The notes: a model not told the origin generated them from the letters alone. Positions 14,529-37,192 are shown, numbered from the stretch's first letter. The stretch is 64,000 nucleotides of DNA from Candidatus Dojkabacteria bacterium (GCA_035444565.1 DAOMOX010000002.1:105335-169334); one strand, 5' to 3'. Translations and numbers: made by a program.

Positions 14529-15215
14529 CTAGAATTCCGAAGTGATCACATCAAGTTCATTAAAATAGAAATTGTTGTTATTGCTTAACATTTCATATGA
14601 TTCAAAAAAATCGTGAAATGGTTTCTTTATGAAAGTTTTAATATCTGTAGTTTTGATCCATTCATATTCACCCTCTTCATTGGGATTTAATTCACCTTCG
14701 GGATCATCAAATCGGACATAAAACATAAATTTATCCTCAAGTAGTTTCTTTTCTTCAGAATAAACCTTGAAATGCCTAAGCCCTTTTACTTCAGGTTCTC
14801 CTTTTAAACCGGCTTCTTCATATAATTCCCTTTTTGCAGTTTCTAATACAGTCTCCCCATAATTAATTTTTCCCGAGAAGAATCCCTGATAATTATAAAA
14901 AGGATGTTTTTTTCTAGTATAAATCAATACTTTAGTACCTTCATCTTTGAAACAACAACATAGAACTGATAATTTAGCTTGTTTTACTTTAAGTTGACTA
15001 TCAGTATCCATAGTATTAGCAAACTCTTTGCCCTTAAGGGTTAATTTGTATATGGTGCCATTCTTTTCAATTAACTTTAGTCCTATTAGCTTCTGTAAAT
15101 GAAAATTATGTTGGTTTGTTTCAATATTTTCTCCAATTAATTGAGAAAATGTAGAACCTTCTGAAAAAAGTAATTTCTTAAGAATCTGCATTTGTAGATA
15201 ATGTAGTTGATCCAT
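14529..15215 (-). CDS. Nudix hydrolase with N-terminal winged-helix-like domain
   Basis: Nudix box GKINYGETVLETAKRELYEEAGL (GX5EX7REUXEEXGU). Confidence 0.65.
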   Translation of the reverse strand: MDQLHYLQMQILKKLLFSEGSTFSQLIGENIETNQHNFHLQKLIGLKLIEKNGTIYKLTLKGKEFANTMDTDSQLKVKQAKLSVLCCCFKDEGTKVLIYTRKKHPFYNYQGFFSGKINYGETVLETAKRELYEEAGLKGEPEVKGLRHFKVYSEEKKLLEDKFMFYVRFDDPEGELNPNEEGEYEWIKTTDIKTFIKKPFHDFFESYEMLSNNNNFYFNELDVITSEF

Positions 15216-15325
15216 ATTTAATTAATAATAATATCCGATCATAATGCTTGGATAATGCGTTTACAAGTCAAATTGATTTGACTTGTAGGTATTTACGTTA
15301 TGAACCATCGAGTAAAAAATATGCC

Positions 15326-19933: not shown

Positions 19934-20161
19934 ATGGATGAAGGAGAAAAATACATAACACCCAAAGACGTATCTTGTGGGGATATAAGAAGAAGAAATA
20001 TCAAGACTTTGCTATTAGCATCCATTCCACCACTCGCTTTTGGAATAGCAGGAGGCATATTTGGTTACCATGTAGAACCCTCAGCTATGGCAGTAATTGT
20101 CGGAGCCTCAGGAGGGACAGCAGCAGGATTGGCAGTTGATTTAGTGGCAACTTCTTTTTAA
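19934..20161 (+). CDS. Small Gly/Ala-rich hydrophobic protein
   Basis: ORF only. Confidence 0.25.
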   Translation: MDEGEKYITPKDVSCGDIRRRNIKTLLLASIPPLAFGIAGGIFGYHVEPSAMAVIVGASGGTAAGLAVDLVATSF

Positions 20162-20228
20162 AAATTCATATTGGGTTACTGTTTGCTAAATCCTCAGTTC
20201 CTTAACTTCTACATTTTCCTTCTTGTCC

Positions 20229-20813
20229 CTATCTCACAATCCTCACAAACTCCCCCTCATCAAGCGTTAAAATTGGTTTACTTGGAGATTTTTCTTTCAG
20301 CATGTCAATTTTCAATTCCCTTTTTCTTTCTATATCCCAATGACAGAGTAGATTGATATCAATTAATCCAAGTCCATCATGTACACTTAGTTCATCTTGA
20401 TAGTCAAATGACAGAATGTAGTGTGAACAAACCATAAATGCTCCCATAGAACCACCTGCATACGTTTTTCCTTCGAGTTGTTTCTCTAGATCTGTGAATT
20501 TTTGGTAGTAGGGTTCAATCAACTTTGCATCTCCTCCCACAACATATAAAACATCGAATTGATCGATTTTCGCATTAAAGTCATCTACGTCCTCAACAAC
20601 TTCTACTTCAACATTTTTATCTGAGTTCTCAGTAATTTTCTTTTTGTAACTTTCCTTTTTTACATCCCAAAACTTCTTTTCCACTGCCCATAGACACAGG
20701 AGTAATCTAACATTATCTTTACGTGGAACATCCACCATCTCTTTGAAAAACCTTGAATTACTTTCTATTTTTAGAGATGTGTTACCTCCATGGAGTAGAT
20801 ATTTTGTGTGCAT
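20229..20813 (-). CDS. Peptidase S51 (dipeptidase E/cyanophycinase)-like protein
   Basis: VLYVVGGDAKLIEPY...GKTYAGGSMGAFMVC matches S51 GG-N-T/SAG catalytic Ser region. Confidence 0.45.
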   Translation of the reverse strand: MHTKYLLHGGNTSLKIESNSRFFKEMVDVPRKDNVRLLLCLWAVEKKFWDVKKESYKKKITENSDKNVEVEVVEDVDDFNAKIDQFDVLYVVGGDAKLIEPYYQKFTDLEKQLEGKTYAGGSMGAFMVCSHYILSFDYQDELSVHDGLGLIDINLLCHWDIERKRELKIDMLKEKSPSKPILTLDEGEFVRIVR

Positions 20814-22000: not shown

Positions 22001-22094
22001 AGTGAATTTAGAGTTCAGAGTTACTTAATCTCTAAATTTCTACATCACTACATTTTCCTTCCACATTTCTGAATTCCTAAATTACTTAATTTCT

Positions 22095-22283
22095 TCATTT
22101 ACTAGATGGTGGCCAAACAACCGCCTGTAACCCAGGATCATTTAAATCTTCATCAGTGACGTGCCCTCCTCCACCCGCATCTTCAGCATCTCGCACCTCT
22201 GCCAGATTTTCAGCATCCCCTGGAGTAACTTGGAGTCTTTCTCCGTCATAACCTAAGGGTTTTGGTGTCGGATTTGTTTCCAT
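22095..22283 (-). CDS. Small acidic hypothetical protein (locally GC-rich ORF)
   Basis: ORF only; noticeably higher GC than surroundings. Confidence 0.2.
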   Translation of the reverse strand: METNPTPKPLGYDGERLQVTPGDAENLAEVRDAEDAGGGGHVTDEDLNDPGLQAVVWPPSSK

Positions 22284-22929: not shown

Positions 22930-23644
22930 TGAAGTTTACGGAAGTTTAACATGGGATTGGGAGGATTTTTACATTTCTTACTTTCTTAATTTCATCATCT
23001 CTTCATTTTCTATAATTCGCCTAATTGGTATTACAACACAAGTTAAATAATTAGATACTCTGCTAGACTTTACCTGTTTAATTTGGTTTCCTCTTACTTA
23101 AAAAGGATGTTAAAATTTAATATGAATACATCTCCAAAAAAACAAAAAAGTATTTCACAAAAGAAATCTTTGTCATCAAAAGTAATAAACAGAGATTTTG
23201 GAACAAACGTGGACAGAGACCTAGGAAAATACCTTCAAAGAAGAGGATTACCAGCACTTGCTGAAATCCTAAAAATTGACAAATAGAACTTCAATACAAC
23301 AACCCCTACATTTTACGTTACCTTATGGAGATTCGCATGTTGAATTCTGCATTCTGAATTCCTTAGTTTCTTAATTTCCACATCTTCCTCACCCCCTTGC
23401 CTTTCCCACCCCATTCTTATAAAATTTATCAAGTATCTCAAAGACTTTGATTTGCTGAAAGAGCAGAAATTGTCGCTTCGGCTGCCAGCCAACCCCTTAA
23501 AGGTTGAAGCAGATGGAGGAACTGTTGTACTAGTAGCCTTTGGTGCCCTCCACAGCAAATCAGATTCAGAATTCTGAATTTTGAATTTTGAATTTCTAAA
23601 TCTCTTCATTTCTTCATTTCTCCAACCTCTCTTTCCCCCACATA

Positions 23645-24109
23645 TTGAAATTACGTCTTCTCATCAGGTATAATCCAAAAATCTTAATTAATAAAATGAA
23701 TAATCAAGAACAAGGACCAGTTTACGACTTTGTGCCAAATGACACTGGACGAAGACTCCTTATGACAGGCTTACTATCAATTGCAAATGGAATATCAGTA
23801 TGGGCAGCTTACAGTTTAGTGCAAATGGATAGTGAATTCGCTTCAATGGCAACTAAATTTGTAGCCGGAATACATGGATTACAGATAGCATCCGCAGGTC
23901 TTCAAATAATAAGAGATTTAAGGACTCCTGATCCTCGTCTTCATGATGGAGGCGTAATGGCCCGAGGATGGAGAGAACGAATAGCAAAAAGAAATTTGGT
24001 ATTTAATGTAATGCCACTATTTGTTTCACTAGCAACTTTATCGGCTTTATACGCTGGAAACTCAACACCAACACCGCTACCAACTCCTGGAGGAGAGATA
24101 CAGGTGTAA
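23645..24109 (+). CDS. Hypothetical membrane protein
   Basis: ORF with two or three hydrophobic helices. Confidence 0.25.
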   Translation: MKLRLLIRYNPKILINKMNNQEQGPVYDFVPNDTGRRLLMTGLLSIANGISVWAAYSLVQMDSEFASMATKFVAGIHGLQIASAGLQIIRDLRTPDPRLHDGGVMARGWRERIAKRNLVFNVMPLFVSLATLSALYAGNSTPTPLPTPGGEIQV

Positions 24110-24149
24110 CCTTGATAAATATCTTAGATAAAGTGTTGGAATTTGGAAT

Positions 24150-24260
24150 TATTCATTCTGATTTTTTCCAACCTGCTCTTCATCCAATTCCATATACGGG
24201 AATATCTCTTTTTGTATCGTGTAATGATTTTCTCGATTCTTGTTTCTGGGTTAGTTAAAA
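24150..24260 (-). pseudogene. Decayed duplicate of the 3' end of the DCD-domain gene (frameshifted)
   Basis: About 100 bp nearly identical to 24680-24780 (…IEKIITRYKK…), with a 1-nt indel destroying the frame. Confidence 0.55.
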
Positions 24261-24660
24261 TTCCTGAGGACATTCTTCCTTAATTTATACATACTTATAA
24301 CAAATAAGTTCCTAGTTCACTAGGAACTAGGAACTTTCTTAGTTTTCCATGAAATACGTTTAAACAAGTGTATGGGTTTGAATTTTGAACTTCTTCATAT
24401 CTAAATTCCTACATCTTTTAATTCCTTAATTTCTACATTCCTAAATCTCTTCATTTTTCCTTTTGTAATTTCTCTAAACTTCTAATCCTTTTCTCTGCTT
24501 CTTTTTCTTTGCGTAGGATTTCTTTAGGATCATCAGTACTCTTTATCAACTCAATTTTTCCTAGTTCGATATCATTAATGAAGTCTTTCATGGAGTTTGA
24601 ATAACTTAAGTAATTTGAAGTTATATTAATTATATGCTTTTATTATATTTTTTTCTGAAT

Positions 24661-25035
24661 TCAGGATTCTGCATTCTGAATTTTTTCAACCTGCCCTTCA
24701 TCTAATTCCATATACGGAAATATCCCCTTCTTATACCTAGTAATTATTTTCTCGATTCTTGAGAATGGGATGGTTTTGGTTTCGGGGAGTAATTCGAACT
24801 TGATTTGTGATGGGAATTTGTCTTGCCATGCTCCTTTTACTAAATATTCTCCACCTTCTGATACTGGTTTATAAGGTCCACTGAATTCATAAGTTGAAGT
24901 GTTGTAGAGAAATAGCAAATCAGCAGGAGTAATACTTTTCACAAGTTGTAAATAATCTCGTTCTTCTCCGAAGAGCATTCTTTCAAACACTTCGTCTTTG
25001 GTTTTTGAGTTGCAGCGGAAGATGAAGGCTTTCAT
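24661..25035 (-). CDS. DCD (development and cell death)/EVE-like PUA-fold domain protein
   Basis: AFIFRCNSKTKDEVFERMLFGEERDYLQLVKSITPADLLFLYNTSTYEFSGPYKPVSEGGEYLVKGAWQDKFPSQIKFEL matches the DCD consensus (FxCN..T....LFG...LFLYN....L.G.Y.A.S.G......AW...FP.QV). Immediately downstream of hsdR, same strand. Confidence 0.55.
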   Translation of the reverse strand: MKAFIFRCNSKTKDEVFERMLFGEERDYLQLVKSITPADLLFLYNTSTYEFSGPYKPVSEGGEYLVKGAWQDKFPSQIKFELLPETKTIPFSRIEKIITRYKKGIFPYMELDEGQVEKIQNAES

Positions 25036-25056
25036 TTTTTATTTAAGTTAATAAAT

Positions 25057-27900
25057 TTACCACTCAAACACCTCCACAATGTTCTGAATCGCATTTCTTA
25101 CCCTATCAACGATGCTTTCACGCTCTAATATTCCAGTATTTGAATTTTTCAAATCAATAATTTCTTGCCCCAGAGGTAGTCTTTGAGTATATAGATATTC
25201 ACCAACAAGACTTTCAAATTTTTCGATTGGAATATCCTCTGTCTTTGCAATGTCACGAAGTGCTTGGGATCTCTCACTTTGCCAAAATTCCTGGAATGCT
25301 TCTTCCACATGACCTGATGTTGATATTGATGGTAGGCTCTCTTCTATAAATTTCTTGATTAACTCTTTCTTTTTTCTTAATTTAATATCTCTATCGAATA
25401 ATTTAAGAATATCTTCCTTCTTAATATCCCTAACGACATCAGAACTTATCTCTTTAAGTCCAGAAATCAAGAAAATGATATAGTCAAAATTAATTATATC
25501 TCGAGAGGTTAACTCTAGCTCGAAATCAATTTGATCTAAAATCGATTCTTTTTCACTAGCGTCGTTTTTAATACTCTCGTAAATATCCAGATACTTACTT
25601 TGGTAATCACTAAACTCTTGTTCTGTAATTCCTAAATCCTCGAAGTTAAATTCTGCGAAAGTTTCTATAGAGGATTTTATTCTCAATAAATCTCTGAAAA
25701 TTTTCACGAAGACTGCCTTTTCTTGTTCTCCCTGCAGTCGGTCGACAGAATCTACAGTTGGAACTCTAACTAACAAATCTTTAATCTTAGACTCAAATTC
25801 TTTGGCCTGTTCTTCATATGGTCTTTTGAAAACAATTTCTTTAGCGTTCTCGTCACCGAATAACGCCAAAGCTTGATCCGTTTCTAATTTCAAATTTCTG
25901 AACGAAACAATATTTCCGTGAGGTTTATCTGAATCATAAAGTCGGTTTGTTCTAGAATATGCTTGAATCAAACCATGATATTTCAAGTTTTTATCAACAT
26001 AGAGTGTGTTCAAGAATTTACTATCAAAACCAGTTAAGAACATATTAACTACAAGTACGAGGTCTACGTCATTCTTTTTAATACGTTCCTGCAGGTTTTT
26101 ATAATAGTTATAAAATTTCTCAGTTGAGTAATTTGTTTTATAAGTTTCATTATATTCTTTGATACAATTTTCTAGGAAGTCTCTGGAGTGTTCATTTATT
26201 GGTTCACCTTCGGTTGGCATATCTGGCTCTTCTGAATACATATCTATACTCTCATCTTCATTTGCACGATATGTAAAAATAGTCGCAATTTTGAAGTCCT
26301 CAGGCTTTTTCTTATTGAACAAAGTATAATATCTCTTCAACACATCGATACTGGGAGTTGCAAATAGTGCATTAAACTTTCCATTTTTTGTTTTTCTTTT
26401 CCAATCCGCGAGAATATAGTCTGAGATTTTATTCAATCTATCGTCACTCTCTAAGACTTCTTTGGTATTAATTCCTTCTACAAGTGCATCTGCAAATATA
26501 TCCGCATCAAGTGTGTCTTGATCTCTCTGTGTATACCTCCCAACGTATTCCACAGCGAAACCAAGCACATTGTTGTCATCGATTGCATGAGTGATGATGT
26601 ATTTGTGCAGACATTCGCCAAAGACGTCTTTCGTAGTGACTCCACCTTGGCTGTTTTCTGCAAAAATCGGAGTACCAGTAAACCCAAACAGCTGAGCCTT
26701 GTTGAAGAATTTCTTAATCCTCGCATGAGTAAGCCCAAACTGTCCTCTGTGACATTCATCGAAAATTATTACCATCTTTTCATCTCGGAGATTTTCAAAC
26801 TGCTTCAGATACGAATCTCTTGATATTGCTATGTCTAATTTCTGAATAGTGGTGACGATGAGCTTACGATTTGGATCTTTGAGTTGCTTTACTAAATTTC
26901 TGGTTTTATCGGTACCATCTACCGAGCCAGCGGAGAATGAATTAAACTCTTTAGTAGTCTGAATATCTAAATCTTTTCTATCCACTACAAACACAACCTT
27001 CTTAATTTCTGGCAATTCTGATAAAACTTGACTGGTTTTAAACGAAGTAAGAGTCTTACCAGAACCAGTTGTATGCCAGATATATCCATTTTTGTTTGAT
27101 TCTTTCACTCTTTTCTCGATAGCCTTCACTGCATAGTACTGATATGGTCTCAAAACCATAGGTATAGACTCTGCCTCCGCAAGTACAGTGTATTCTGAAA
27201 TCATGCTAGATAAAGTACATTTCTCCAGGAACGAATCTGCAAAGTCAGCGAGTTTAGTAATCTTGTTATTATTTACATCAGTCCAGAAAAATGTTTGTTG
27301 GAACTTTTGCTTTGGGTTGTTAGCGAAATATTTGGTATTTACACCGTTACTAATCACAAAAATCTGCACATATTCGAAAAGCGTCCCGGTGAATGAGTGC
27401 TTGTGATAACGCTGTATCTGGTTAAACGCTTCTTTCATTTCCACACCTCTACGCTTTAGCTCTATATGAACTAGTGGAAAACCATTCACAAGCAAACTCA
27501 CATCGTATCTGTTTTGATATTTCTCAGTTTGGGTAATCTGGTTTGTAACTTGGTATTCGTTTTTACACCACTGATCTGTGTTAAAAAATCTGATGTAGCA
27601 ACTAGTACCATCATCTCGAGTAAGTGCAAATCTATCTCTGAGTGTCTTCGCTTTCTGAAATCTATCGCCTTTGTTTAGATGGTTTCGTATCTTAGTAAAC
27701 TCCAAATCCGAAAATTCGGTCTTGTTGAATTTTTCGAGCTGAACTTTCAGATTATCTTCCAGTGCTTGCTTGTCTAATATGCTAACTCGCTCAAAGCCGA
27801 GATAGCCTAGCTGGGCGATAAGTTCATTTTCAAGTTGTTGTTCGGATTGATGCATATTTTGTTTTCTATTCCTTATTAAATACCGATAGCCTTTCAGCAA
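25057..27900 (-). CDS. hsdR: Type I restriction enzyme R subunit
   Basis: WHTTGSGKTLTSF Walker A, IFDECHRGQFG DEAH box, 947 aa SF2 helicase-nuclease architecture. Confidence 0.85.
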   Translation of the reverse strand: MLKGYRYLIRNRKQNMHQSEQQLENELIAQLGYLGFERVSILDKQALEDNLKVQLEKFNKTEFSDLEFTKIRNHLNKGDRFQKAKTLRDRFALTRDDGTSCYIRFFNTDQWCKNEYQVTNQITQTEKYQNRYDVSLLVNGFPLVHIELKRRGVEMKEAFNQIQRYHKHSFTGTLFEYVQIFVISNGVNTKYFANNPKQKFQQTFFWTDVNNNKITKLADFADSFLEKCTLSSMISEYTVLAEAESIPMVLRPYQYYAVKAIEKRVKESNKNGYIWHTTGSGKTLTSFKTSQVLSELPEIKKVVFVVDRKDLDIQTTKEFNSFSAGSVDGTDKTRNLVKQLKDPNRKLIVTTIQKLDIAISRDSYLKQFENLRDEKMVIIFDECHRGQFGLTHARIKKFFNKAQLFGFTGTPIFAENSQGGVTTKDVFGECLHKYIITHAIDDNNVLGFAVEYVGRYTQRDQDTLDADIFADALVEGINTKEVLESDDRLNKISDYILADWKRKTKNGKFNALFATPSIDVLKRYYTLFNKKKPEDFKIATIFTYRANEDESIDMYSEEPDMPTEGEPINEHSRDFLENCIKEYNETYKTNYSTEKFYNYYKNLQERIKKNDVDLVLVVNMFLTGFDSKFLNTLYVDKNLKYHGLIQAYSRTNRLYDSDKPHGNIVSFRNLKLETDQALALFGDENAKEIVFKRPYEEQAKEFESKIKDLLVRVPTVDSVDRLQGEQEKAVFVKIFRDLLRIKSSIETFAEFNFEDLGITEQEFSDYQSKYLDIYESIKNDASEKESILDQIDFELELTSRDIINFDYIIFLISGLKEISSDVVRDIKKEDILKLFDRDIKLRKKKELIKKFIEESLPSISTSGHVEEAFQEFWQSERSQALRDIAKTEDIPIEKFESLVGEYLYTQRLPLGQEIIDLKNSNTGILERESIVDRVRNAIQNIVEVFEW

Positions 27901-29431
27901 GACTTCTGTCTACACTTTTTTGAGGTGAAATAAATAATTGAATACCTTCTGCATCTTTAAAAAAACATTGTTTACTTTCAAAAACTGATAGCAATAAGGG
28001 ATCATCTGGCATCATTTTCTTTATTTCTTCCTTCAAATATATATAGTCCAAACCTAAAGACATGTACTTCGCAAAATATATGTACCATATTAATTCATAG
28101 ACAGACTTTAACTGCATAGCTTTATCAATTTCTTTTAAAATAATCTTTTTTATATCTTCCTTTAAAGGTTTATGGATTTTACGATATTTAATAAAAACCA
28201 ATTCAATAATCGACAAGATATGGCATAAGGCCTTTGGAGATTCACGTTTCAACATTATTAACAATGAGAATGTTTTTATAATCTCTTTATATTCCATCTC
28301 TTTACTCTTCTTTGTGAATTGTATTTTCAATCCGTACGAATCATTAATTAACTCGCATAAGAACTTTTCAATAATGCTAGTCCCTCTATACTTCTGATGA
28401 ATATCTAAAACTCTCAATAATGTCAATTCGAAAGTTTTAAAGGGGATGTATTTTTTGTGTTTAAGTGAATAATTATAATAATCTCTATCGTGTTTCCTAT
28501 ATAGCCCTTGAGGAAGTTTTTCAACGCTAGTCTTTTCCTCGTTGATAAGCAGATTAAATTCTTCTAATTCATCCCTTAAAGTTTTAATTATTAAATTTGC
28601 ATCATCGTCGTTCATACATAAAAATCTATAGTCGTCTTTAAATCTTGTTGCAATAAAGTCAACATTTTCATTTTTAAGTTTCAAAGATACCTGCGTGTCA
28701 ATCCTAGATAATATTATCTCAGCTATTAAATCGCTTAATGCTGATCCTATAGGTATACCGTTTGTCCTAAGTTCATTAGAAAGCATATAACATCTATCTA
28801 TTTTTGAACCAAATAGTTTCTGCTCCTTTATGTCGCGCAAGGATTGATCACGTCCATGAATTGCCCACCCAATGCTGTGAGTGTATATTGATTTGTAAAA
28901 ATTAGTAATATCTGACTTTATAATATAATTGTACTTGTATACTTCTGTTATTAAGTCCTTCTCAGCCATTTCAATCCACTCATATATAAGTCTACCTGAC
29001 CTTAGTTTCCCAACCACACCTTTGGTGGTCGTATCTAAAGGAATAGGAAAGCTATATGAGTAAACCCTTAAGTCTTTGTCAAACAATATCTTTTTTATCT
29101 CTTCCCAGTTCTGATAAAGATGAAAAACAATATTATGGTAGTATTTTGGATTTTGAATGGAGAACACCCGAGAGGCGATGTTACTTTTTGGGTAAGCAAC
29201 CTTTACCAATTTATCAGACTTATTAGAATTAAACGCATTCTTTTTAAGAATAAAATTGCTAATCGTGTAAGAAGGTGGCAACACATTCTGCTCAGGGTAA
29301 TATCCTTCATTTAAAAGCCAGAGTGCAATGTCCTCTTTAGGTATTAAATCTAAATACCTCTCTGTTTCTTTTTGATGTTCTATAATAAAGTTATTCAAAT
29401 AAACATTTTTTGCATCACCCCTTTCTTCCAC
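27866..29431 (-). CDS. Reverse transcriptase of Abi/defence-associated (UG-like) type, embedded between hsdS and hsdR
   Basis: RT motif A region KSDITNFYKSI, motif B NGIPIGSALSDLIAEIIL, motif C variant TRFKDDYRFL (FKDD instead of YxDD). Both ends overlap flanking hsd genes. Confidence 0.6.
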   Translation of the reverse strand: MEERGDAKNVYLNNFIIEHQKETERYLDLIPKEDIALWLLNEGYYPEQNVLPPSYTISNFILKKNAFNSNKSDKLVKVAYPKSNIASRVFSIQNPKYYHNIVFHLYQNWEEIKKILFDKDLRVYSYSFPIPLDTTTKGVVGKLRSGRLIYEWIEMAEKDLITEVYKYNYIIKSDITNFYKSIYTHSIGWAIHGRDQSLRDIKEQKLFGSKIDRCYMLSNELRTNGIPIGSALSDLIAEIILSRIDTQVSLKLKNENVDFIATRFKDDYRFLCMNDDDANLIIKTLRDELEEFNLLINEEKTSVEKLPQGLYRKHDRDYYNYSLKHKKYIPFKTFELTLLRVLDIHQKYRGTSIIEKFLCELINDSYGLKIQFTKKSKEMEYKEIIKTFSLLIMLKRESPKALCHILSIIELVFIKYRKIHKPLKEDIKKIILKEIDKAMQLKSVYELIWYIYFAKYMSLGLDYIYLKEEIKKMMPDDPLLLSVFESKQCFFKDAEGIQLFISPQKSVDRSLAERLSVFNKE

Positions 29432-30552
29432 TTCTCAGCCTGGGTAATGCGTTGGTTGGTTATATTAATTAGATCGTCAATTGACGATAGGAAGTCTGCG
29501 ATTTTCTGTTGTTCTGATAATGTAGGTTTACTAAATATCATTTTCGACAAGATAGAAAAGTGTCGCTTGTAGCCCTCTGGTTTTATTTGATTTGATTGTA
29601 GTAGGTAGAACAAAAACTTTAAATTATCTTCATTGCTTTTAGCCATCAATATTTTAGTTCCGTCTGCTCCGATAATGAAATCGAAATTGATATACTTTAA
29701 AATTGTAGTATGATCCCCAAAAACAATAACCGGAGTCGATTCAAATACCTTGTTTGAATTATTTGAATAACCGGCAATTAAGCTTTTTCCTTGATCAACT
29801 ACCTTATATTCTCCTGTAGCTATAATTTCAGAGCTTTTGATTTGGAAGTACTTAGGAGATGTACTAACTAATATTTCATTAAACCTCTTCTCCTCCCACT
29901 CCGGATAATCACTCCCATCCTCATCTTTAAACCTTATCTCCTGCGAAAAGATTTTCTGCATCATCCCTTTTTTGTATTTCTCCTGTGCTTCTTTTTGCTT
30001 TTTTAGATTCTCAATCCAGTCGTCTACGGAGGTGAGGAAGGAGGCGATTTTGCGTTGTTCTTCGGATTTCGGGAATTCGAATTTCAACGATCTTAAATCA
30101 TTTGTGTAGATTCTCGTGATAGTCGTTGAATTTAGTTTGTCCCATCTACAATTAGTTAGCAGAAGGAAAAGAAAATCATCATCAACAACTTCATTATCGT
30201 TATCGATCCAGACAATGTTAGAATCTTGATAATAACTATCACGACCATCGAATTGAACGCACTTACCGATCGTTCCACTACAAGTGATTAAAGTCTGTCC
30301 TTTTCTTGGAAAGTTATATTGTAATTTATAGTTCTTAAATAAATTTTTATTGATAAATGCATCAGCGACACTCCCTAAGGTGCCTATTTTATAGAAAGGT
30401 ACTTCTCCAACTTCCTTAGTTTGGTGGGCAAAGATTCTTTTGCACATTTTGACAGAACCTAAGTCTCCTAATTTTCTTTCCTCCCACTCACCAGAGAATT
30501 CGGGGAAGCGGAGGGTTGGGGTTAGAGTTGTTTTGGTATCAGGCCTATTCAT
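29395..30552 (-). CDS. hsdS: Type I restriction-modification specificity subunit
   Basis: N-terminal LRFPEFSGEWEERKLGDLG, two TRD halves, conserved ...SEEQRKIASFLTSVDDWIENL / LSEQQKIADFLSSIDDLI repeats. Confidence 0.8.
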   Translation of the reverse strand: MNRPDTKTTLTPTLRFPEFSGEWEERKLGDLGSVKMCKRIFAHQTKEVGEVPFYKIGTLGSVADAFINKNLFKNYKLQYNFPRKGQTLITCSGTIGKCVQFDGRDSYYQDSNIVWIDNDNEVVDDDFLFLLLTNCRWDKLNSTTITRIYTNDLRSLKFEFPKSEEQRKIASFLTSVDDWIENLKKQKEAQEKYKKGMMQKIFSQEIRFKDEDGSDYPEWEEKRFNEILVSTSPKYFQIKSSEIIATGEYKVVDQGKSLIAGYSNNSNKVFESTPVIVFGDHTTILKYINFDFIIGADGTKILMAKSNEDNLKFLFYLLQSNQIKPEGYKRHFSILSKMIFSKPTLSEQQKIADFLSSIDDLINITNQRITQAEKWKKGVMQKMFI

Positions 30553-30854
30553 CTATTGCAATATTTGTAAATTTCAAAAGCTAAGTTTAAGGCCGCTACT
30601 ATCACAGCTAGAAGTCCAACAAGAACTCCTGCTTTACTAATTTTATTAAGTGCTCTAGTTAACTTTTCAGAGGATTCATTTGCCTCTTTGATGTTTTTGT
30701 TTAGCTCTACAAGCACTCCACGCATCTTACCCAATTCTTCATTGACTCCACTCAATTTTTTCGTTAATCCAAGATAAGTAGGTATCTCTGAGAAATATAG
30801 AGTCATATTTTCAATTAATTTTTCAGTTTTGGGATCATTTATGTCTACCTTCAT
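30549..30854 (-). CDS. Small protein with C-terminal TM helix, inserted between abiEii and hsdS
   Basis: ORF; coiled-coil-like N-terminus plus VLVGLLAVIVAALNLAF helix; unknown function. Confidence 0.35.
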   Translation of the reverse strand: MKVDINDPKTEKLIENMTLYFSEIPTYLGLTKKLSGVNEELGKMRGVLVELNKNIKEANESSEKLTRALNKISKAGVLVGLLAVIVAALNLAFEIYKYCNR

Positions 30855-30861
30855 GAATACT

Positions 30862-32184
30862 TCATTTCAATAAATCATCAAATTCACAATTTAAAAGTGC
30901 TGATTTTGTCAGAACTATCTGTTCCGATCTATTTAATCTATCTGCTGTAAGACGTATAAGCCTTGTGGTCAATCTATCACCCACAACTTCTCTATTTGAT
31001 TTTGAAATATAATCCTCAATCTTTTTATGAAACAACGTTGCATATTGCTTTATCTTGTCACTCTTACCGGACTCAGTTATCTTTTCGACAACTTCTCGAG
31101 ATATATCAATTGTAATATCTCCATCCGCGAAACTTATCCAATAATCGCTAATATTAATTATAAACCAAACTGACTTTCCTTCTTCCGTCTTGTACTCATA
31201 TGCAAAAGTGTAATTATCAGTAAAGAATTCTGTTTTAATTTCTATCCTTTCAAGTTCTTTAATCCGGTGTATAGGATAGGACTGAACCAATTTTAAATAA
31301 CTCTCATGCCAGTTAGTCAGCCAATTAGTAATATAGTTATTATCAGTAAACAGCGGAATTAGATCCTGCTCAAGATTATCTACTTCCACTGTATTCATTT
31401 TTATAGTCAATTCATCAAACAGTTTCTGTAGATTAGAAGTGTTCACACCTTTGGCTTTTAAATAATCTAGATCAGGTATCGCCTTTTTATCCATATACCA
31501 GAGCAAGTCATATATATCCCTACCTTTTTCATTAAATGTTTTGCTCCCAATATTTCTCTCTCCTCTTAAAAAGATAGCTGCTATTTTACTTGCCATAAGA
31601 TTCGACATATTGTAAGTCTTGATTACAAACGATAACTGATCTCTACTTATCGGAATTTTTTCTGTTGTTGACTTTTCTGAATTGAATTGGTTCAAGTCAA
31701 TCTTTAGATGAATTTGGTCCGAAGCATGACCCAATCCTAGTTTTTCTCCAATATGGAAATTCAATCGGAGTCCACGAACACCACTAATTTTTACGGTCAT
31801 AAATGTCGAATCTGTTTTATACTGATTTGAAAAGTACGACTCAATTTCGGATTTCAGCTCTTCCAGAAAATCCTGTGTGACTTCGGTTTTAATTTCAAAA
31901 TCTAAATCTACCGACATTCGATTAAGTCCATGGCAGATACGTAAAGCTGAACCTCCATACATAACCCATTTACTGTATTCTGGATGATGGTATATGAAAT
32001 TTAGAACATAAAACTGTAATTCCTCTTTTAGCACATTCCTTTGTATCTCGACACTAACAGATTCAGATGCTTTTACTTCTTCTAGTTTTGTCTTTAGTTT
32101 TAATAATACTTGATTATTCATGTTCTTTATATTTCTCGACCATTGAATGAAACTGATCCTGCTCCTTCTTTTCCATTTCATCAA
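30862..32184 (-). CDS. abiEii: AbiEii/AbiGii-family nucleotidyltransferase toxin (type IV TA / abortive infection)
   Basis: MYGGSALRICHGLNRMSVDLDFE matches DUF1814 signature GGTAL..hg.R.S.DLD. Probable true start at internal Met about 21 codons downstream. Confidence 0.65.
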   Translation of the reverse strand: MMKWKRRSRISFIQWSRNIKNMNNQVLLKLKTKLEEVKASESVSVEIQRNVLKEELQFYVLNFIYHHPEYSKWVMYGGSALRICHGLNRMSVDLDFEIKTEVTQDFLEELKSEIESYFSNQYKTDSTFMTVKISGVRGLRLNFHIGEKLGLGHASDQIHLKIDLNQFNSEKSTTEKIPISRDQLSFVIKTYNMSNLMASKIAAIFLRGERNIGSKTFNEKGRDIYDLLWYMDKKAIPDLDYLKAKGVNTSNLQKLFDELTIKMNTVEVDNLEQDLIPLFTDNNYITNWLTNWHESYLKLVQSYPIHRIKELERIEIKTEFFTDNYTFAYEYKTEEGKSVWFIINISDYWISFADGDITIDISREVVEKITESGKSDKIKQYATLFHKKIEDYISKSNREVVGDRLTTRLIRLTADRLNRSEQIVLTKSALLNCEFDDLLK

Positions 32185-32752
32185 AATCGATACGTAGTTC
32201 TTCTAATAAATTACTTATATCTCTAACCTCAATTGATCGAAATCTATTTGTCCTAAAATACAGCAAGTCGAAAAGGGCTTTAGAGGGGGAGGCAATATAA
32301 AAATCAAATTTATTATCTGATTCAGAATCTCCTTTAACCAACAAATAATCAGAAAAGATCTTTTCATTGATAGACTTATAAAAGAATGTACCGATTTTTG
32401 TCTGATAATCTCTGGTTACCTTTTGTGTTACAGAGGTAATAGCACCGATTTCCTCAGTAGCTAGAGAGTAATATTGCAATGCCGTCCACGAGCTTATATA
32501 TGATGGTTTCCTCAACACGTTCGCCAAATAGTACAAATACGTTACATCATTTTTATTTTTCTCATAGAAATCCCTAGAAACGTACAATTCTCTTCTTAGC
32601 TGGATAATATCTTTGCTTTTTATATACCTACTAATATAAGTATCTATAGTCACATCTTCTAAAGCATACTGCTCAGCTATTTGCACCAAAACAGCCTTAG
32701 TAAAATAAGGTAACGGTTTCAAGTTTTCGATTAGATTTTTCTTGCTTTTCAT
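32114..32752 (-). CDS. abiEi: AbiEi-family antitoxin/transcriptional regulator
   Basis: Size, position directly upstream of AbiEii and ...YISSWTALQYYSL... AbiEi-like segment. Confidence 0.5.
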   Translation of the reverse strand: MKSKKNLIENLKPLPYFTKAVLVQIAEQYALEDVTIDTYISRYIKSKDIIQLRRELYVSRDFYEKNKNDVTYLYYLANVLRKPSYISSWTALQYYSLATEEIGAITSVTQKVTRDYQTKIGTFFYKSINEKIFSDYLLVKGDSESDNKFDFYIASPSKALFDLLYFRTNRFRSIEVRDISNLLEELRIDFDEMEKKEQDQFHSMVEKYKEHE

Positions 32753-32806
32753 ATATATGACACTATTGTATCAGATATAAAACATAGATTCAATACACAA
32801 ACATAT

Positions 32807-34384
32807 TTAAAATGGACTCTCAATCCCTAATTCTTTAGTAAATACTTCAATTTTCTTTTTTAAATTCTCTTCTTCACCTGCCAATTCTTTCGCTTCTTTC
32901 GCCACAGCTTCGATATCTATTTCTGGCTCTTCATCGAATGTATCGACGTATCTTGGGATATTTAGATTAAATTCATTTTCTTCGATCTCTTTAAGTGTCG
33001 CTTTGTGTGAATATTTCTCTATTTCTTTTCTGTCTTTGTATGTTTCAAATATTTTGGATATATTCTCATCGGTTAGTTTGTTTTGATTTTTACCTTTTTC
33101 GAACTCTTTCGAAGCATCGATAAACAAAATATCATCGTCTTCTTTTCTGCATTTTTTGAATACCAAAACTGTTGCTGGAATAGATGTCCCGTAGAACAGA
33201 TTTGCTGGAAGACCGATTACTGCATCGAGATAATTCTGTTTCTCTATGATATATTTCCGAATCTGACCTTCTGCTCCAGATCTGAATAACGCTCCATGTG
33301 GAAGGACAACTGCCATCGTTCCATTGTCAGCCAGATGATAGAGCATGTGAGTGACAAATGCATAGTCAGCTGCACCTTTTGGTGCTAGACGACCGTATTG
33401 AGAAAATCTTTCATCATTCGCCAGTACAGGATCTGTATCACTTTTCCATTTAGCTGAAAAGGGCGGATTTGCCACCACCGCCTCTGCTTGCAAATCTTGA
33501 TGCATGTCATCCATAAGAGTGTCCCCCTGCCTGATGCTAAACTTATCAAAGTGAAGTCCATGTAAAATCATATTCATCCTAGCCAAGTTGTATGTTGTGG
33601 GATTGAGCTCTTGACCAAGATAACTTGTAACATTTGTGAAATCTCCGACACGCAAAAGCAGTGAGCCAGAACCACATGTTGGATCATAAACCGATTTAAG
33701 CCTGGTTTTACCTTCTGAAACAATTTGAGCCAATAACCTCGAAACCTGCGCTGGCGTGTAGAATTCTCCGCCTTTCTTTCCTGCACCGGAAGCAAATTCA
33801 CCTATCAAATATTCATATGCATCACCTAAAAGATCACTTTTCGAGTCTTCAATTTTAAAATCAATCCCTGCCAAAGCAGTTAATACTTCTACTATCACCT
33901 CGTTTTTCTTGTTTTCAGACTTACCAAGCTTTGATGAAGATAAATCCACATCATCAAACAATCCTTTGAAATCATCTTCGCTGGCTGTTCCCATTGAGGT
34001 TTGCTCTATTTTATTCAGAACATTTTTCAAATCTTCAAGTATGAACTTGTCCACTCCATTAATTTCACCATTTCCAGCTTTGACTAAATATGAAAACAAC
34101 TCTCTAGGCTTCAAGAAGAATCCAAGATATTCAGTTGTAGCTTTTTGCACAGCTTCTAGGATCTTTTCACCTTCTTGTGTTTCTTCATCAATTTCGTCAA
34201 ACTTGTACTTTTCGCCCTTTAAAAGTTCCTCATCAACATATGCAGACAGTTTCTCCGAAAGATATTTGTAGAAAATAAAGCCAAGAATGTAATTTTTGTA
34301 TTCATCGGCATTCATTTTTCCGCGGAGGATGTTTGCTACTGACCAGAGTTGCTTCTCGAGGAGTTGCTTGTGTTCATCAGCCAT
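32807..34384 (-). CDS. hsdM: Type I restriction-modification N6-adenine DNA methyltransferase subunit
   Basis: DPTCGSGSLLL (motif I) and VANPPFSAKW (motif IV NPPF). Confidence 0.85.
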   Translation of the reverse strand: MADEHKQLLEKQLWSVANILRGKMNADEYKNYILGFIFYKYLSEKLSAYVDEELLKGEKYKFDEIDEETQEGEKILEAVQKATTEYLGFFLKPRELFSYLVKAGNGEINGVDKFILEDLKNVLNKIEQTSMGTASEDDFKGLFDDVDLSSSKLGKSENKKNEVIVEVLTALAGIDFKIEDSKSDLLGDAYEYLIGEFASGAGKKGGEFYTPAQVSRLLAQIVSEGKTRLKSVYDPTCGSGSLLLRVGDFTNVTSYLGQELNPTTYNLARMNMILHGLHFDKFSIRQGDTLMDDMHQDLQAEAVVANPPFSAKWKSDTDPVLANDERFSQYGRLAPKGAADYAFVTHMLYHLADNGTMAVVLPHGALFRSGAEGQIRKYIIEKQNYLDAVIGLPANLFYGTSIPATVLVFKKCRKEDDDILFIDASKEFEKGKNQNKLTDENISKIFETYKDRKEIEKYSHKATLKEIEENEFNLNIPRYVDTFDEEPEIDIEAVAKEAKELAGEEENLKKKIEVFTKELGIESPF

Positions 34385-34499
34385 TGTTGTAATTATAAAT
34401 TAATAATAACCTAGATTATACATGCAAGACTTATACATAATCCACATACAAACATTTCTAATTAGTTCAAAACTCCGAATTAAATATTTCTTATAAATC

Positions 34500-35543
34500 T
34501 TAAGATGCTATAAAATTATCATTAACAGTATCTATCAACAAAACTATCTGATTTGCCATATCTTTTATAACTATATCTTCAGTAACATCAAGTTTTGGAA
34601 ATATAGGAAAATAAATCCGATCTTTCTGAATTATTTTTGTATCAATAAGTCTTTCAGTTTTATGGCAACTTTCTATAAGTTGAGGTGTCGTGGCCCAGTT
34701 CTTGCTATCTTGGAAACCTATCCAAAAAGGCGTATCCAAATACTTAGACCAAAGATCCATACTGAAATATAGTGTTAGTGCAAGCTTTTCATAATACCCA
34801 AACCTGACGTAACCATCTCTTTGAGGTGTCGCTCGCAATTTCTCTGTCATAAATTTACCATTATTCCTTAGCTCTTCGACAAGGTTATCAATTAAATCAC
34901 AGTATGACATTAATCTTCTGGGATACTTAGGGGACAAATCATCACTTTGTATTGGAAGGAAAGAGTTATCATCAATAACTTTACAAAAACCGATTAATTG
35001 ATCAATGTCTGATACTAAGCTTGTTGAACCTTCCTGTACTAAGTTGCTCTTAATAATAGCTAGGATTTCATCCCACGTTTTTATTAGAATATATTTATTT
35101 TCAGGCAATTCAATTAACCTATCATTTGCACTTTTCTCTGGTATTTCAATTTTTACAACCCTATTTTTGATTTCTGAATACAAAGATCGACTTCTCAGTG
35201 TTGGGCAAATAAATAAAAGTACGGATGACTCGCCAATTCTTTTCAGATACTCTAGCGGTTGATTCTCAGTCAATGATGCCCAAAACTTAGCTTCGATGAT
35301 TAATCTTTCATTTTCATCCGTGGTTGTTACTCCAGATATATCCGGACGTTCTAAATTTTCCCCGATTGATTGGGCAATATATTTTAAATCTGGAAGATTA
35401 ATCCCGGTATCGTTTGAGATTACATTTTGTAGCGCATCTCTAGCACCTTTTGATTTATTCAAAATATAAGATAATCCGGTTGATGCAATATCTTCCTGTG
35501 ATCCTCTGATACGTGAATAAAATTGTCCTAGTAGTGATTCCAT
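34500..35543 (-). CDS. Hypothetical protein with possible PD-(D/E)xK-like signature (PDISGV...ERLIIEAKFW)
   Basis: ORF directly upstream of hsdM on same strand; D...E-A-K spacing only. Confidence 0.3.
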   Translation of the reverse strand: MESLLGQFYSRIRGSQEDIASTGLSYILNKSKGARDALQNVISNDTGINLPDLKYIAQSIGENLERPDISGVTTTDENERLIIEAKFWASLTENQPLEYLKRIGESSVLLFICPTLRSRSLYSEIKNRVVKIEIPEKSANDRLIELPENKYILIKTWDEILAIIKSNLVQEGSTSLVSDIDQLIGFCKVIDDNSFLPIQSDDLSPKYPRRLMSYCDLIDNLVEELRNNGKFMTEKLRATPQRDGYVRFGYYEKLALTLYFSMDLWSKYLDTPFWIGFQDSKNWATTPQLIESCHKTERLIDTKIIQKDRIYFPIFPKLDVTEDIVIKDMANQIVLLIDTVNDNFIAS

Positions 35544-35653
35544 GAATGTGTTTGATAATAATTATTAAGTAAAACTCACAGTTCTTTTATCATTTAATTC
35601 CTCAATTCCTAAATTTCTCAATCTTTACATTTTATTTCCTCATTCCTCAATCT

Positions 35654-36385
35654 CTAAATTCCTAAATCCCTCAATTTCCCTTGATACCCACACCACTCAC
35701 ACCCCTCCCTATACCCCGGAATCTCCTCCCCCATCAAACAATCCTTAATCTCTCTCAACTTCCCCTCAATCCAGCTGTCGTCTCCGGTGTATGGAATTAC
35801 GGAGATTTTGAATTCTAGTTTTGCATCGAAGGCTTGTTTGTCTTTGATGCCATTGCAATAAACAAAGTAACCCGTATTCGATACTTCAAAACCATTTCTT
35901 CGTAGTAACCATTGATAGATTTCCATTTGTCTCTTGTATGACATTTGCCAGTCTGCATCGATATTTACCTCCTCTTTTTTTGAAGTTGATTTGTAGTCCA
36001 CTACTATTAATTCTCCTTTTGGATTCACCCAAACATCATCAACTGCTCCTGCCACCAGAAGATTGGTTTCTTCGTGTAGGTATTGAACACCTTGGAAATT
36101 TTCTCTCCAGATGTCGATATCTTTGTGAGTGAAAGGAATTGCATCAATTCCATATGTGGTCATCAGTGGATGAGGGTCACCCTTGATACGATGGGTATCG
36201 AATTCTTGCTTCAATAAGTGGTCAACCGCAGAATTCAAACTAAACGGAGGACCTGAGGGCTGCTTTAATCCAAGTCTTCTATCCAGATAAAAACAATGCG
36301 GACAATTAATGAAGAATTCTATTCCCGATCTGCTGATTTTGTAAGCTTCGTCTTTGAGTGGATCAAACTGCCCTCGATAAGCCAT
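35654..36385 (-). CDS. Cas4-like / RecB-family PD-(D/E)xK exonuclease with Fe-S cysteines (stand-alone, no CRISPR nearby)
   Basis: N-terminal CPHC, LLVAGAVDDVWV (motif II), LIVVDYKST (motif III DYK), QMEIYQWLL (QxxxY), C-terminal C..GCEWCGY cysteine cluster. Confidence 0.55.
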   Translation of the reverse strand: MAYRGQFDPLKDEAYKISRSGIEFFINCPHCFYLDRRLGLKQPSGPPFSLNSAVDHLLKQEFDTHRIKGDPHPLMTTYGIDAIPFTHKDIDIWRENFQGVQYLHEETNLLVAGAVDDVWVNPKGELIVVDYKSTSKKEEVNIDADWQMSYKRQMEIYQWLLRRNGFEVSNTGYFVYCNGIKDKQAFDAKLEFKISVIPYTGDDSWIEGKLREIKDCLMGEEIPGYREGCEWCGYQGKLRDLGI

Positions 36386-36472
36386 ATTTGTGGTTTCTAG
36401 GTTGAAGTTGATTATACTATTATTAACTATTCAAAGAAAGTAATCACCAGTAAGAATTTTGGTGATTGAGAC

Positions 36473-37192
36473 TTATACCTTAAAGTAATCCATCTTCTGA
36501 GTATTTTTACACGTAGGGAAGTTTGTACATCCCCAGAATATCCCATATTTTCCTTCAACAATCTTCATCCTGCTGTCGCATTTGTTACAGAACTTGACTG
36601 AATCCCTATTAATTAATGGTCTGAGAGGAATTTCTACATTATATTTTTTTATTATACTCACTAGTTCATAGCCATTTATCAATCTAATAGGTCTTTCACT
36701 TGCGAAACGCTTTGCATCTAGCGTGAAAATATTAGTAGTTACAAAATATGCATTGGCATTATTCAGTTTATCTACTGTGGCACCATAAAAATCTCTCATA
36801 TCACTAAGAGTTACAACTCGGTTTATGTACTTTTTACATTGTATATAGTGAGTTTTTTCCCCTTTTTTTACAATTATATCTATTCCTCCATCCCTCAGGC
36901 CACCAATCACATTTGTCGTGTAGCCTAATTGTTGAAATATTTTTCCAACAAACTCTTCAAATTCATGTGGTGAGAGATTTTTAATTGCCGAGAGCATTTC
37001 TTTATCACTTTTCCAAGTGAATTCTTTCCTCTCCGGAGTGCTTTGCTGTTGGGTGGGGATAGTGGGTAAAGACGAACTTACAGGTGGTGCTTTCTCATCT
37101 TTAGTAGCACTCAGAGCTTTGATAAGGAAAACTACGAGAGAAAGAATTACTACTAGATAGATACTACAAAACAGAAAAAAGAAATTCTCCAA
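36473..37192 (-). CDS. Mrr-cat-type restriction endonuclease domain protein with N-terminal TM and C-terminal topoisomerase-type C4 zinc finger
   Basis: FEEFVGKIFQQLGYTTNVIGGLRDGGIDIIVKK...HYIQCKKY (Mrr_cat D..D.K), C-terminal CNKCDSRM...CTNFPTC. Confidence 0.55.
   Translation of the reverse strand: MENFFFLFCSIYLVVILSLVVFLIKALSATKDEKAPPVSSSLPTIPTQQQSTPERKEFTWKSDKEMLSAIKNLSPHEFEEFVGKIFQQLGYTTNVIGGLRDGGIDIIVKKGEKTHYIQCKKYINRVVTLSDMRDFYGATVDKLNNANAYFVTTNIFTLDAKRFASERPIRLINGYELVSIIKKYNVEIPLRPLINRDSVKFCNKCDSRMKIVEGKYGIFWGCTNFPTCKNTQKMDYFKV

Follow-up and report, generated by a model that had tools for sequence, protein, structure and literature searches.

A UG14 reverse transcriptase gene located between hsdS and hsdR of a type I restriction-modification operon of Candidatus Dojkabacteria

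Introduction

What kind of reverse transcriptase (RT) is encoded between the specificity and the restriction gene of a type I restriction-modification (R-M) operon, and does it depend on its neighbours? The question is raised by a 64,000-nucleotide stretch of DNA from a Candidatus Dojkabacteria bacterium (GCA_035444565.1, DAOMOX010000002.1:105335-169334; this whole stretch is called the window below). Its minus strand carries, in one run, hsdM, AbiEi, AbiEii, a small open reading frame (ORF), hsdS, the RT gene, hsdR and a DCD-domain gene (Table 1). An initial annotation, made from the sequence alone, had placed an RT gene between hsdS and hsdR, and the ORF was indeed present there; its translation contained all the motifs listed at that time (SDITNFY, NGIPIGSALSDLIAEIIL and RFKDDYRF). 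The analysis described here identified the RT as a member of UG14, a Class 1 UG/Abi RT group that is already catalogued, and not as the founder of a new family. As an explanation of the whole locus we favour, with some reservation, an intact single-gene UG14 module that resides in a type I R-M operon, would synthesize protein-primed untemplated single-stranded DNA (ssDNA), and would add a second layer of defence through abortive infection.

The UG/Abi classification of Mestre et al. 2022 (PMC9226505) includes UG14 by name. In that work an RT is assigned to Class 1 if it is fused to a C-terminal alpha-helical repeat (alphaRep) domain, and UG14 belongs to the groups that are strongly enriched in defence islands and were "predicted as novel defense genes", although the assays of that study covered other groups (PMC9226505). 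The DRT numbering now extends in the literature to DRT10 (UG17) and DRT11 (UG5) and does not cover UG14, which is a defence-enriched RT group still uncharacterised.

Results and discussion

Assignment of the RT to the UG14 group

The translated ORF was aligned to UG/DRT/Abi profiles, as the initial annotation had proposed. The best match was to the PADLOC profile RT_UG14 (E 1.9e-180, 598.9 bits), with residues 16-520 of the 521-amino acid (aa) ORF on positions 4-492 of the 493 in the profile. This full-length match was clearly superior to those obtained with the sister groups, of which Drt6 (211.9 bits), Drt4 (181.6 bits) and AbiP2 (181.3 bits), then AbiK, came next. The NCBIfam Drt4 profile scored 150.1 bits, under its equivalog cut-off of 450, indicating that the protein is not Drt4 (UG15) proper. 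Pfam RVT_1 gave a modest match (E 3.4e-10; 40.4 bits, gathering cut-off 29.6) to residues 144-304 of the same ORF, and the scores of the retron and intron profiles were far under the cut-offs (37.7 against 235 for retron_St85_RT, 49.1 against 300 for group_II_RT_mat). The resemblance to RTs was thus not fortuitous, the protein having a real RT fold, and identity with a known group II intron or retron RT could be dismissed on the sub-cut-off scores and the lack of a match to a non-coding RNA (ncRNA) family. The view that the gene encodes a single-gene RT of the UG/Abi class was borne out by the full-length profile match, the fold and the lack of a conserved partner gene, and can be refined to UG14, Class 1. 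The other suggestion made at that time, a novel RT family using the R-M context, found no support, as the family is already catalogued (PMC9226505) and most of its members are not linked to R-M genes.

With the RT as query, a word-indexed search retrieved 714 relatives at E<=1e-10. When 1.84 billion representatives clustered at 50% identity were searched exhaustively, 80 clusters reached E<=1e-30 and 2,185 reached E<=1e-10, the latter number including other Class 1 groups. In a family alignment of 33 members, which were 50-72% identical to the window RT, mean column identity was 70% and about 100 positions were invariant; UG14 is conserved across phyla at 35-72% identity. Motif C, which had been described as non-canonical, turned out to follow the family norm: RFKDDYR was invariant in the 33 sequences, and the catalytic residues D163, D255 and D256, all present in the window RT, were invariant in 75 of 75 members from genomes of many phyla. 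Five tyrosines (Y115, Y139, Y168, Y172 and Y257) were also strictly invariant among the 75 members. Y33, located in the region that corresponds to Tyr61 of Abi-P2, was replaced by Phe in four of them.

The window RT resembles the other UG14 proteins in its full-length profile match, its length, the invariant motifs, the alpha-repeat C-terminus and its occurrence as a stand-alone gene in a defence neighbourhood. Structurally no difference was found; what sets the sub-clade of the window apart is the position of the gene, wedged between hsdS and hsdR, which was not seen in the 80 further genome loci inspected.

The longest-ORF rule puts the start of the RT gene at a GTG inside hsdS. Most probably the true start is the TTG at 29398, from which a 510-aa protein would be made, since the homologues are 506-516 aa long, their alignment begins at this codon, and the orthologue in locus L083 (loci are designated by L numbers), whose RT is 72% identical, has an ATG at the equivalent position, in an ATGA overlap with hsdS. 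The TTGA stop/start overlap of the window is an arrangement typical of translational coupling. On the other side, the hsdR start is most probably the ATG at 27855, 10 nt past the RT stop, judging from the typical HsdR N-terminus that begins there; the corresponding spacing is 10 nt in L081 (between called genes) and 13 nt in L083. The initial annotation had stated that both ends of the RT gene overlap hsd genes and that there is no intergenic room. There is indeed no room, with a 4-nt overlap on the hsdS side and a 10-nt spacer on the hsdR side, but the overlap with hsdR was a longest-ORF artefact. The RT reading frame is intact, and the approximately 100 family-invariant residues are all present in the window protein.

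Predicted structure

The structure prediction that had been suggested was carried out with AlphaFold2 on the family alignment. In the resulting model (predicted local distance difference test score 88.4, predicted template modelling score 0.88) the N-terminal 300 residues were mixed alpha/beta and the C-terminal 200 residues were all-helical, with helices between 302 and 504. When the model was compared with the PDB by Foldseek, the top matches were UG15/DRT4 structures (9l9s, 9vdo, 9vdv) with template modelling (TM) scores of 0.65-0.71 over about 480 columns, followed by DRT6 (9wy8, TM 0.68-0.70), then by Abi-P2 (7r08) and AbiK (7r06); AbiA was weaker. The superposition on DRT4, DRT6, Abi-P2 and AbiK ran through the C-terminal domain and comprised 455-545 aligned columns, placing the model among the Class 1 UG/Abi RTs. 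With RTs of retrons, group II introns and diversity-generating retroelements, and with DRT2 and DRT9, the TM score was about 0.3 and the palm alone was superposed. Comparison of the family profile with the sequences of solved structures gave E-values of 3e-33 for Abi-P2, 4.5e-32 for DRT4 and 1e-26 for DRT6.

The long N-terminal extension and the helical C-terminus lacking a partner domain had been pointed out as peculiar. The helical C-terminus was found as described, but neither part is unusual: because of the fold and profile matches to Class 1 enzymes, they can be recognized as the ordinary fingers region and the alpha-repeat domain of this class.

Neighbours of UG14 RT genes

Eighty genome loci containing relatives of the RT were fetched by a genome scan with the family alignment, a scan with the single protein having given no confirmed relative. 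They represent Bacteroidota, Cyanobacteria, Planctomycetota, Patescibacteria, Gammaproteobacteria (including Enterobacter and Vibrio), Acidobacteriota and other phyla. When up to four genes on either side of the RT were clustered in the 80 loci, no family recurred beyond R-M components, which were found in 6-13 loci, and no common family emerged when all genes immediately before and after the RT in the family loci were scanned with Pfam and PADLOC. These immediate neighbours were a mixture that included R-M enzymes, type IV nucleases, other DRTs, helix-turn-helix proteins and housekeeping genes. In L029 (10052-13231) the UG14 RT is followed, at a distance of 201 nt, by a second, Drt8-like RT. 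An ORF of about 197 aa recurring downstream of several RTs was considered as a partner candidate and was rejected, as its members did not cluster by BLASTP.

Proposed mechanism and candidate priming tyrosine

The characterized enzymes of similar architecture suggest how a UG14 RT may function. DRT4 and DRT6 are hexameric and tyrosine-primed (Tyr125 in DRT4), and carry out constitutive, template-independent synthesis of random ssDNA (PMC12783706). Host ExoI keeps them harmless, and they are toxic without SbcB; shielding of the product by a phage protein resembling single-strand-binding protein (T5 ORF55) makes it lethal (PMC12783706). Both act alone. The behaviour of AbiK, Abi-P2 and AbiA has been found similar in vitro, with priming tyrosines that differ from one enzyme to the other (AbiK Tyr44, Abi-P2 Tyr61, AbiA Tyr298/303, DRT4 Tyr125; PMC12783706).

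Because UG14 has the architecture of these enzymes, the same chemistry is our best guess for it. From this homology we infer an anti-phage role, protein priming, untemplated synthesis and a trigger logic, which can be put together as follows. The RT, captured in a type I R-M operon and self-sufficient in that it would need neither partner protein nor ncRNA, would be expressed from the hsd operon by read-through and translational coupling. By homology to DRT4/UG15, DRT6/UG12, Abi-P2 and AbiK it most likely assembles as a hexamer. One of its own tyrosines, the best candidate being Tyr139, would serve as primer, and deoxynucleoside triphosphates would be polymerized without a nucleic-acid template, yielding ssDNA in covalent linkage with the protein. 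As long as the cell is uninfected, the ssDNA would be neutralized, as it is by a host 3'-5' exonuclease in the case of DRT4, and a phage factor would let the ssDNA accumulate, resulting in abortive infection. In the operon the RT may in this way form an independent second layer behind restriction.

Tyr139 is proposed as the candidate priming tyrosine because it is part of the invariant motif LRSGRxIYEW, adjoins the sole low-confidence loop of the model (residues 134-137; the following helix spans 136-155), and is close to the position of DRT4 Tyr125, which aligns three residues, that is one helical turn, downstream of Y139 in the same helix; Y33, as mentioned, tolerates Phe. Y168, Y172 and Y257 are probably structural: Y172 and Y257 are Tyr also in DRT4, and Y168 lies in motif A and is Phe in DRT4. 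Y139 and Y115 are the strictly invariant tyrosines that are not explained by RT motifs common with DRT4.

With DRT4 (UG15) and DRT6 (UG12; PMC12783706; PDB 9vdo, 9l9s, 9wy8) the window RT has in common the two-domain architecture, the fold (TM 0.65-0.71), the conserved motifs GYxPxQ, DIxxxY/F, NGIPxG-like and xDDY, and the organization as a single gene without ncRNA. It differs from them in sequence (about 20-22% identity) and in the position of the DRT4 priming Tyr125, which is Ile142 in UG14 and may be replaced by the nearby invariant Tyr139. Abi-P2 and AbiK (PDB 7r08, 7r06), both protein-primed and untemplated, also combine an RT with a helical-repeat fold, and Abi-P2 is the best sequence-profile match to a solved structure. 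However, their priming residues Tyr61 and Tyr44 are located in an N-terminal fingers loop, where the Tyr33 region of UG14 tolerates Phe, and they occur in prophage or plasmid contexts as opposed to the R-M operon of the window RT.

Several points weigh against the mechanism proposed above. A full-text literature search for UG14 found no experiment on the defence or enzymatic activity of the group. The characterized relatives are only about 20-22% identical to the RT, and the NCBIfam Drt4 score was far under the cut-off (150 against 450). Priming residues differ among Class 1 enzymes, and the residue that aligns with DRT4 Tyr125 is an isoleucine (Ile142), not a tyrosine. Patterned products are known from the Class 1 enzymes Drt3b and DRT7, so a random product cannot be assumed for UG14 and its product cannot be predicted. 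Finally, co-transcription of the RT with the hsd genes is deduced from gene spacing alone.

The Drt3b and DRT7 precedent deserves attention, as the sequence-defined, patterned products of these Class 1 enzymes are protein-templated and made without a nucleic-acid template. A UG14 RT could accordingly use the same single-gene, protein-primed scheme to make protein-templated DNA instead of random ssDNA, and the Drt3b profiles did match the RT (E 1.4e-34 with PADLOC, 1.5e-34 with NCBIfam). The NCBIfam match was, however, far below the cut-off of that profile, and the Drt3b similarity spans the palm alone (residues 165-416). The best sequence and fold matches are the random-ssDNA enzymes DRT4, DRT6 and Abi-P2, and neither a Drt3a-type partner nor a primase domain was found by the Pfam and PADLOC scans. 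We consider a patterned product unlikely, although it is the best placed of the alternatives to untemplated synthesis of random ssDNA by a protein-primed UG14 module. The compact natural operon, in which the UG14 RT is accompanied by an AbiE pair and an intact type I R-M system, would be a convenient construct for studying UG14 defence, the DNA product and the priming tyrosine.

Relationship to R-M systems

A census of R-M genes was made in the 80 loci with profiles iterated from the HsdR and HsdM sequences of the window, within a radius of 10 kb. R-M genes were detected near the RT in 13-14 of the loci, and about 85% had none. Where present, they were almost always located upstream and on the same strand. 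In the coupled cases hsdR overlapped the RT gene by 4 nt (L013, L034) or was separated from it by 5 nt (L018), and hsdM overlapped it by 4 nt (L062). In L064 (151-6248) and L075 (2145-7252) the upstream genes encode type IIG (Eco57I/TaqI_C) restriction-methylases of 1,264-1,468 aa, and their ends overlap the RT gene by 1 nt; the L064 enzyme also has an IS200-like (Y1_Tnp) stretch. The R-M-linked lineages were scattered on a neighbour-joining tree, a distribution that implies independent captures. The order hsdS-RT-hsdR was seen only in the sub-clade comprising the window, L081, L082, L083 and L084 (RT identity down to 72%), and the next relative, L001, with an RT 64% identical, has no hsd genes nearby.

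In EcoprrI the PrrC gene is located between hsdS and hsdR. PrrC is an R-M-embedded backup, which is almost always embedded and functionally coupled (10.1101/2024.01.29.577857), and other documented cases of defence genes within type I R-M operons include TgvAB of Vibrio cholerae and RloF of Campylobacter (PMC11411939). The arrangement found here is already known in kind; the window adds one example to the Class 1 single-gene defence RTs and one to the R-M-nested defence genes. Like PrrC, TgvAB and the Rlo genes, the RT gene is embedded in an hsdMSR operon in the same orientation, and it occupies the same hsdS-hsdR slot as PrrC. However, these proteins (among them an ABC-ATPase anticodon nuclease and a GmrSD-like protein) are unrelated to the RT. 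Moreover, the PrrC-type occurrence almost exclusively in type I R-M operons was not seen with UG14: in contrast to PrrC, UG14 is embedded in a minority of loci.

The likeness to PrrC nevertheless raises the possibility of a guard function, in which the RT is held inactive by HsdMS/HsdR and freed once the R-M enzyme has been disabled by an anti-restriction protein of a phage, the action of the RT thus depending on the hsd genes. Besides the slot shared with PrrC of EcoprrI, such a function would agree with the tight coupling to hsdS and hsdR, with the preservation of the gene order down to 72% RT identity, and with the existence of about 10 further, phylogenetically scattered lineages in which the RT immediately follows R-M genes of the same strand, some with overlaps of 1-4 nt. 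If true, it would make the RT a polymerase counterpart of the PrrC guard. A general dependence on Hsd proteins is, however, contradicted by the large majority of loci without an R-M gene, some of them integron-cassette-like. The R-M partner and the gene order vary between lineages, the RT allele has been exchanged independently of hsdM and hsdR (RT 72%, HsdR 93% and HsdM 98% identical to L083), and the characterized relatives DRT4 and DRT6 act alone. A guard function of this kind appears improbable to us. Similarly, there is a small chance that the repeated recruitment of UG14 into R-M operons reflects a functional link, with the RT sensing restriction failure or anti-restriction proteins and using untemplated DNA synthesis as a backup. 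Since UG14 is embedded in a minority of loci, its partners vary and its alleles are exchanged independently, the data argue for co-regulation and co-transfer rather than coupling; it is the repeated, translationally coupled placement behind R-M genes that keeps a PrrC-like link under consideration. The operon could serve as a test case to distinguish mere co-regulation and co-transfer from real cross-talk with the R-M system.

Recombination within the sub-clade

The close copies of the RT come from an activated-sludge metagenome and from Joint Genome Institute metagenomes. L084, from the activated-sludge metagenome, is 99.93% identical to the window over 4.5 kb, and the RTs of L081 and L082 are identical to that of the window. 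Sliding identity against L081 revealed a 2,090-bp tract of complete identity (9927-12016 in L081), with flanks 44-95% identical; outside this tract the nucleotide sequences were 86% identical in hsdM, 78-95% in the rest of hsdR and about 45-55% in the recognition domains of hsdS. A second near-identical tract was observed in hsdR at approximately 25200-25900. These tracts bear the signs of recent recombination between strains, which would have carried the RT allele. In the comparison with L083 the pattern was reversed, the HsdM (98%) and HsdR (93%) proteins being much more similar than the RT (72%). Since the RT lies in a tract of 100% identity amid diverged flanks in one case and shows the opposite pattern in the other, its allele is exchanged by recombination independently of the surrounding hsd genes. 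Such exchange is more in keeping with an autonomous module carried by a conserved scaffold than with a subunit that co-evolves with the others. Repeats flanking the RT, which might mark an insertion, were searched for in the window and none were found.

Other parts of the operon are also interchangeable. The slot between hsdM and hsdS is occupied by AbiEi/AbiEii in the window (30549-32752), in L083 (3150-5408) and in L084, and by a Fic-domain gene in L081 (7290-8809) and L082. The small ORF preceding hsdS is unrelated in three versions (101 aa long in the window and 97 aa in L081, and coding for a DUF2513 protein of 119 aa in L083). The hsdS gene itself is a mosaic, with a first recognition domain about 93% identical to L083, a central conserved region about 87% identical to L081 and a second recognition domain unlike either; its last approximately 110 nt are conserved in the window, L081 and L083. 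This is a typical case of domain shuffling, by which R-M specificity is altered.

The recombination-prone location and the lack of experimental data on UG14 might suggest that the RT is a decaying or non-defence passenger without current function. We regard this as very improbable in view of the intact frame, the complete set of family-invariant residues, the identical or near-identical copies in three other metagenome contigs and the conservation of the family across phyla at 35-72% identity. Strong purifying selection acts on the flanking hsd genes, whose ratios of non-synonymous to synonymous substitution rates (dN/dS) are 0.03-0.14; for the RT, synonymous sites were saturated in the comparison with L083.

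Search for an ncRNA

A scan of positions 23000-36000 of the window against Rfam at E<=1 returned nothing but a chance snoRNA-like match in hsdM. Promoter-like sites were fewer than in shuffled sequence (27 compared with 43.9 +/- 7.1), and a terminator-like scan gave no excess of terminator signals. All-against-all comparison of the upstream flanks in the family loci detected no shared non-coding block, similarity being confined to the start of the coding sequence. Taken together with the neighbour analysis, this shows that the UG14 RT is a stand-alone gene without an obligatory partner gene or ncRNA. An RNA-templated enzyme (retron, group II intron or DRT2/DRT9-like) whose ncRNA is hidden inside or antisense to the coding sequence is hardly credible, for in spite of a weak resemblance to the group II intron and retron RT profiles, which is due to the common palm, the scores were far under the cut-offs (49 against 300 and 38 against 235), the TM scores to DRT9, DRT2, retron and group II RTs were about 0.3, Rfam matches and an excess of promoter-like sites were lacking, and the flanks of the family genes had no conserved non-coding block except cassette-boundary elements.

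These elements were seen in several genomes, in which an imperfect palindrome of about 150 nt, conserved and non-coding, comes directly after the UG14 RT; its outer arms covary (GGCGG/CCGCC versus GGGGG/CCCCC). The sites are L002 11508-11659; L003 3227-3378; L006 11565-11715; L008 8811-8978; L009 3669, 7790, 12447 and 15499; L049 11510-11660 and 12340-12471; L056 11541-11674; L061 2241-2318; and L070 11557-11668. Additional copies, oriented the same way, are interspersed among neighbouring genes that are unrelated, and there is no copy in the window. The block had been considered as an ncRNA candidate and was rejected: it is a repeat of cassette boundaries that is found also at unrelated genes, not an RT-specific RNA, and is absent from the window. 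The palindromes resemble integron attC sites, and several UG14 RTs look like single-ORF integron gene cassettes.

Organization of the operon and adjoining genes

The features of the locus are listed in Table 1. The RT has a defence context: AbiE genes are present in the same operon, and PD-(D/E)XK and Mrr-like genes adjoin it. The AbiEi/AbiEii toxin-antitoxin/abortive-infection pair (30862..32752), recognized by its profile matches, is a second embedded cargo, situated between hsdM and hsdS. In L081 and L083 HsdR is 932-933 aa long.

Table 1. Features of the RT-containing operon (coordinates refer to the window)
Feature	Position	Strand	Description or basis
hsdM, methyltransferase subunit	32807..34384	-	First operon gene; Pfam N6_Mtase E 3e-110, HsdM_N
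AbiEi	32114-32752	-	PADLOC AbiEi E 2.5e-35
AbiEii (mechanical ORF)	30862-32184	-	PADLOC AbiEii E 1.8e-29; Pfam AbiEii
Small ORF	30549-30854	-	101 aa, unassigned, just upstream of hsdS
hsdS, specificity subunit	29395..30552	-	385 aa, two target-recognition domains; Pfam Methylase_S in two stretches, E 5.5e-39
TTGA junction	29395..29398	-	RT start TTG overlaps hsdS stop TGA (29397-29395) by 4 nt; orthologous ATGA in L083
RT, mechanical ORF	27866..29431	-	521 aa, GTG start at 29431 (longest-ORF rule)
UG14 RT gene, probable extent	27866..29398	-	510 aa, TTG start 29398, stop TAG 27868-27866
RT domain (fingers, palm, thumb-like), residues 1-300	28499..29398	-	RVT_1; alignment to Abi-P2/DRT4 chains, profile positions 7-299
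Motif L-R-S-G-R-x-I-Y-E, residues 132-140, including Tyr139	28979..29005	-	Invariant 33/33; Tyr139 75/75
Motif A, Asp163 codon	28912-28910	-	Read from sequence
Motif C, F253-K-D255-D256, two Asp codons	28636-28631	-	Read from sequence
C-terminal all-helical alpha-repeat (HEAT-like) domain, residues 301-510	27869..28498	-	AlphaFold2 helices; superposition on DRT4/UG15, DRT6, Abi-P2 (TM 0.65-0.71, 455-525 columns)
2,090-bp tract 100% identical to L081	27416..29505	.	End of hsdS, whole RT, first 440 nt of hsdR; sliding identity
hsdR, restriction subunit	25057..27855	-	932 aa from ATG 27855; mechanical ORF to 27900; HSDR_N, SWI2_SNF2, T1R_D3-like, EcoR124_C
DCD (Development and Cell Death, PF10539) gene	24661-25035	-	124 aa, directly after hsdR
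Hairpin with 13-bp stem	24306..24336	.	After DCD gene; terminator-like scan

The hairpin that follows the DCD gene is likely to mark the end of the transcription unit. The DCD gene is kept in L081, and in L083 its place is taken by a GmrSD_N/SLFN_AlbA_2 gene. About 520 nt downstream, at 24139-24256, there is a copy of approximately 120 nt of the 3' end of the DCD gene (76-84% identical), probably the remnant of a second gene copy. The region upstream of hsdM (34500-37192) encodes a 347-aa protein that belongs to no family, a PD-(D/E)XK nuclease (35654-36385) and a protein with Mrr_cat and zinc-ribbon domains (36473-37192).

In the window and in L081 the variable defence region is bounded by an RND efflux gene (42586-45246 in the window) and a Peptidase_S51 gene (20229-20813). 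The content of the region differs, L081 having HicAB together with one gene of the HD-domain and one of the NUDIX type. The window also contains a dispersed repeat, about 75-95 nt long, at 35586-35681, 24395-24484 and 22023-22100, and at least five further copies were detected in L081 (e.g. 2418-2527, 14993-15085, 15145-15222, 20156-20228 and 3197-3270). It resembles a small element of the miniature inverted-repeat transposable element (MITE) or repetitive extragenic palindromic (REP) type bordering the variable island.

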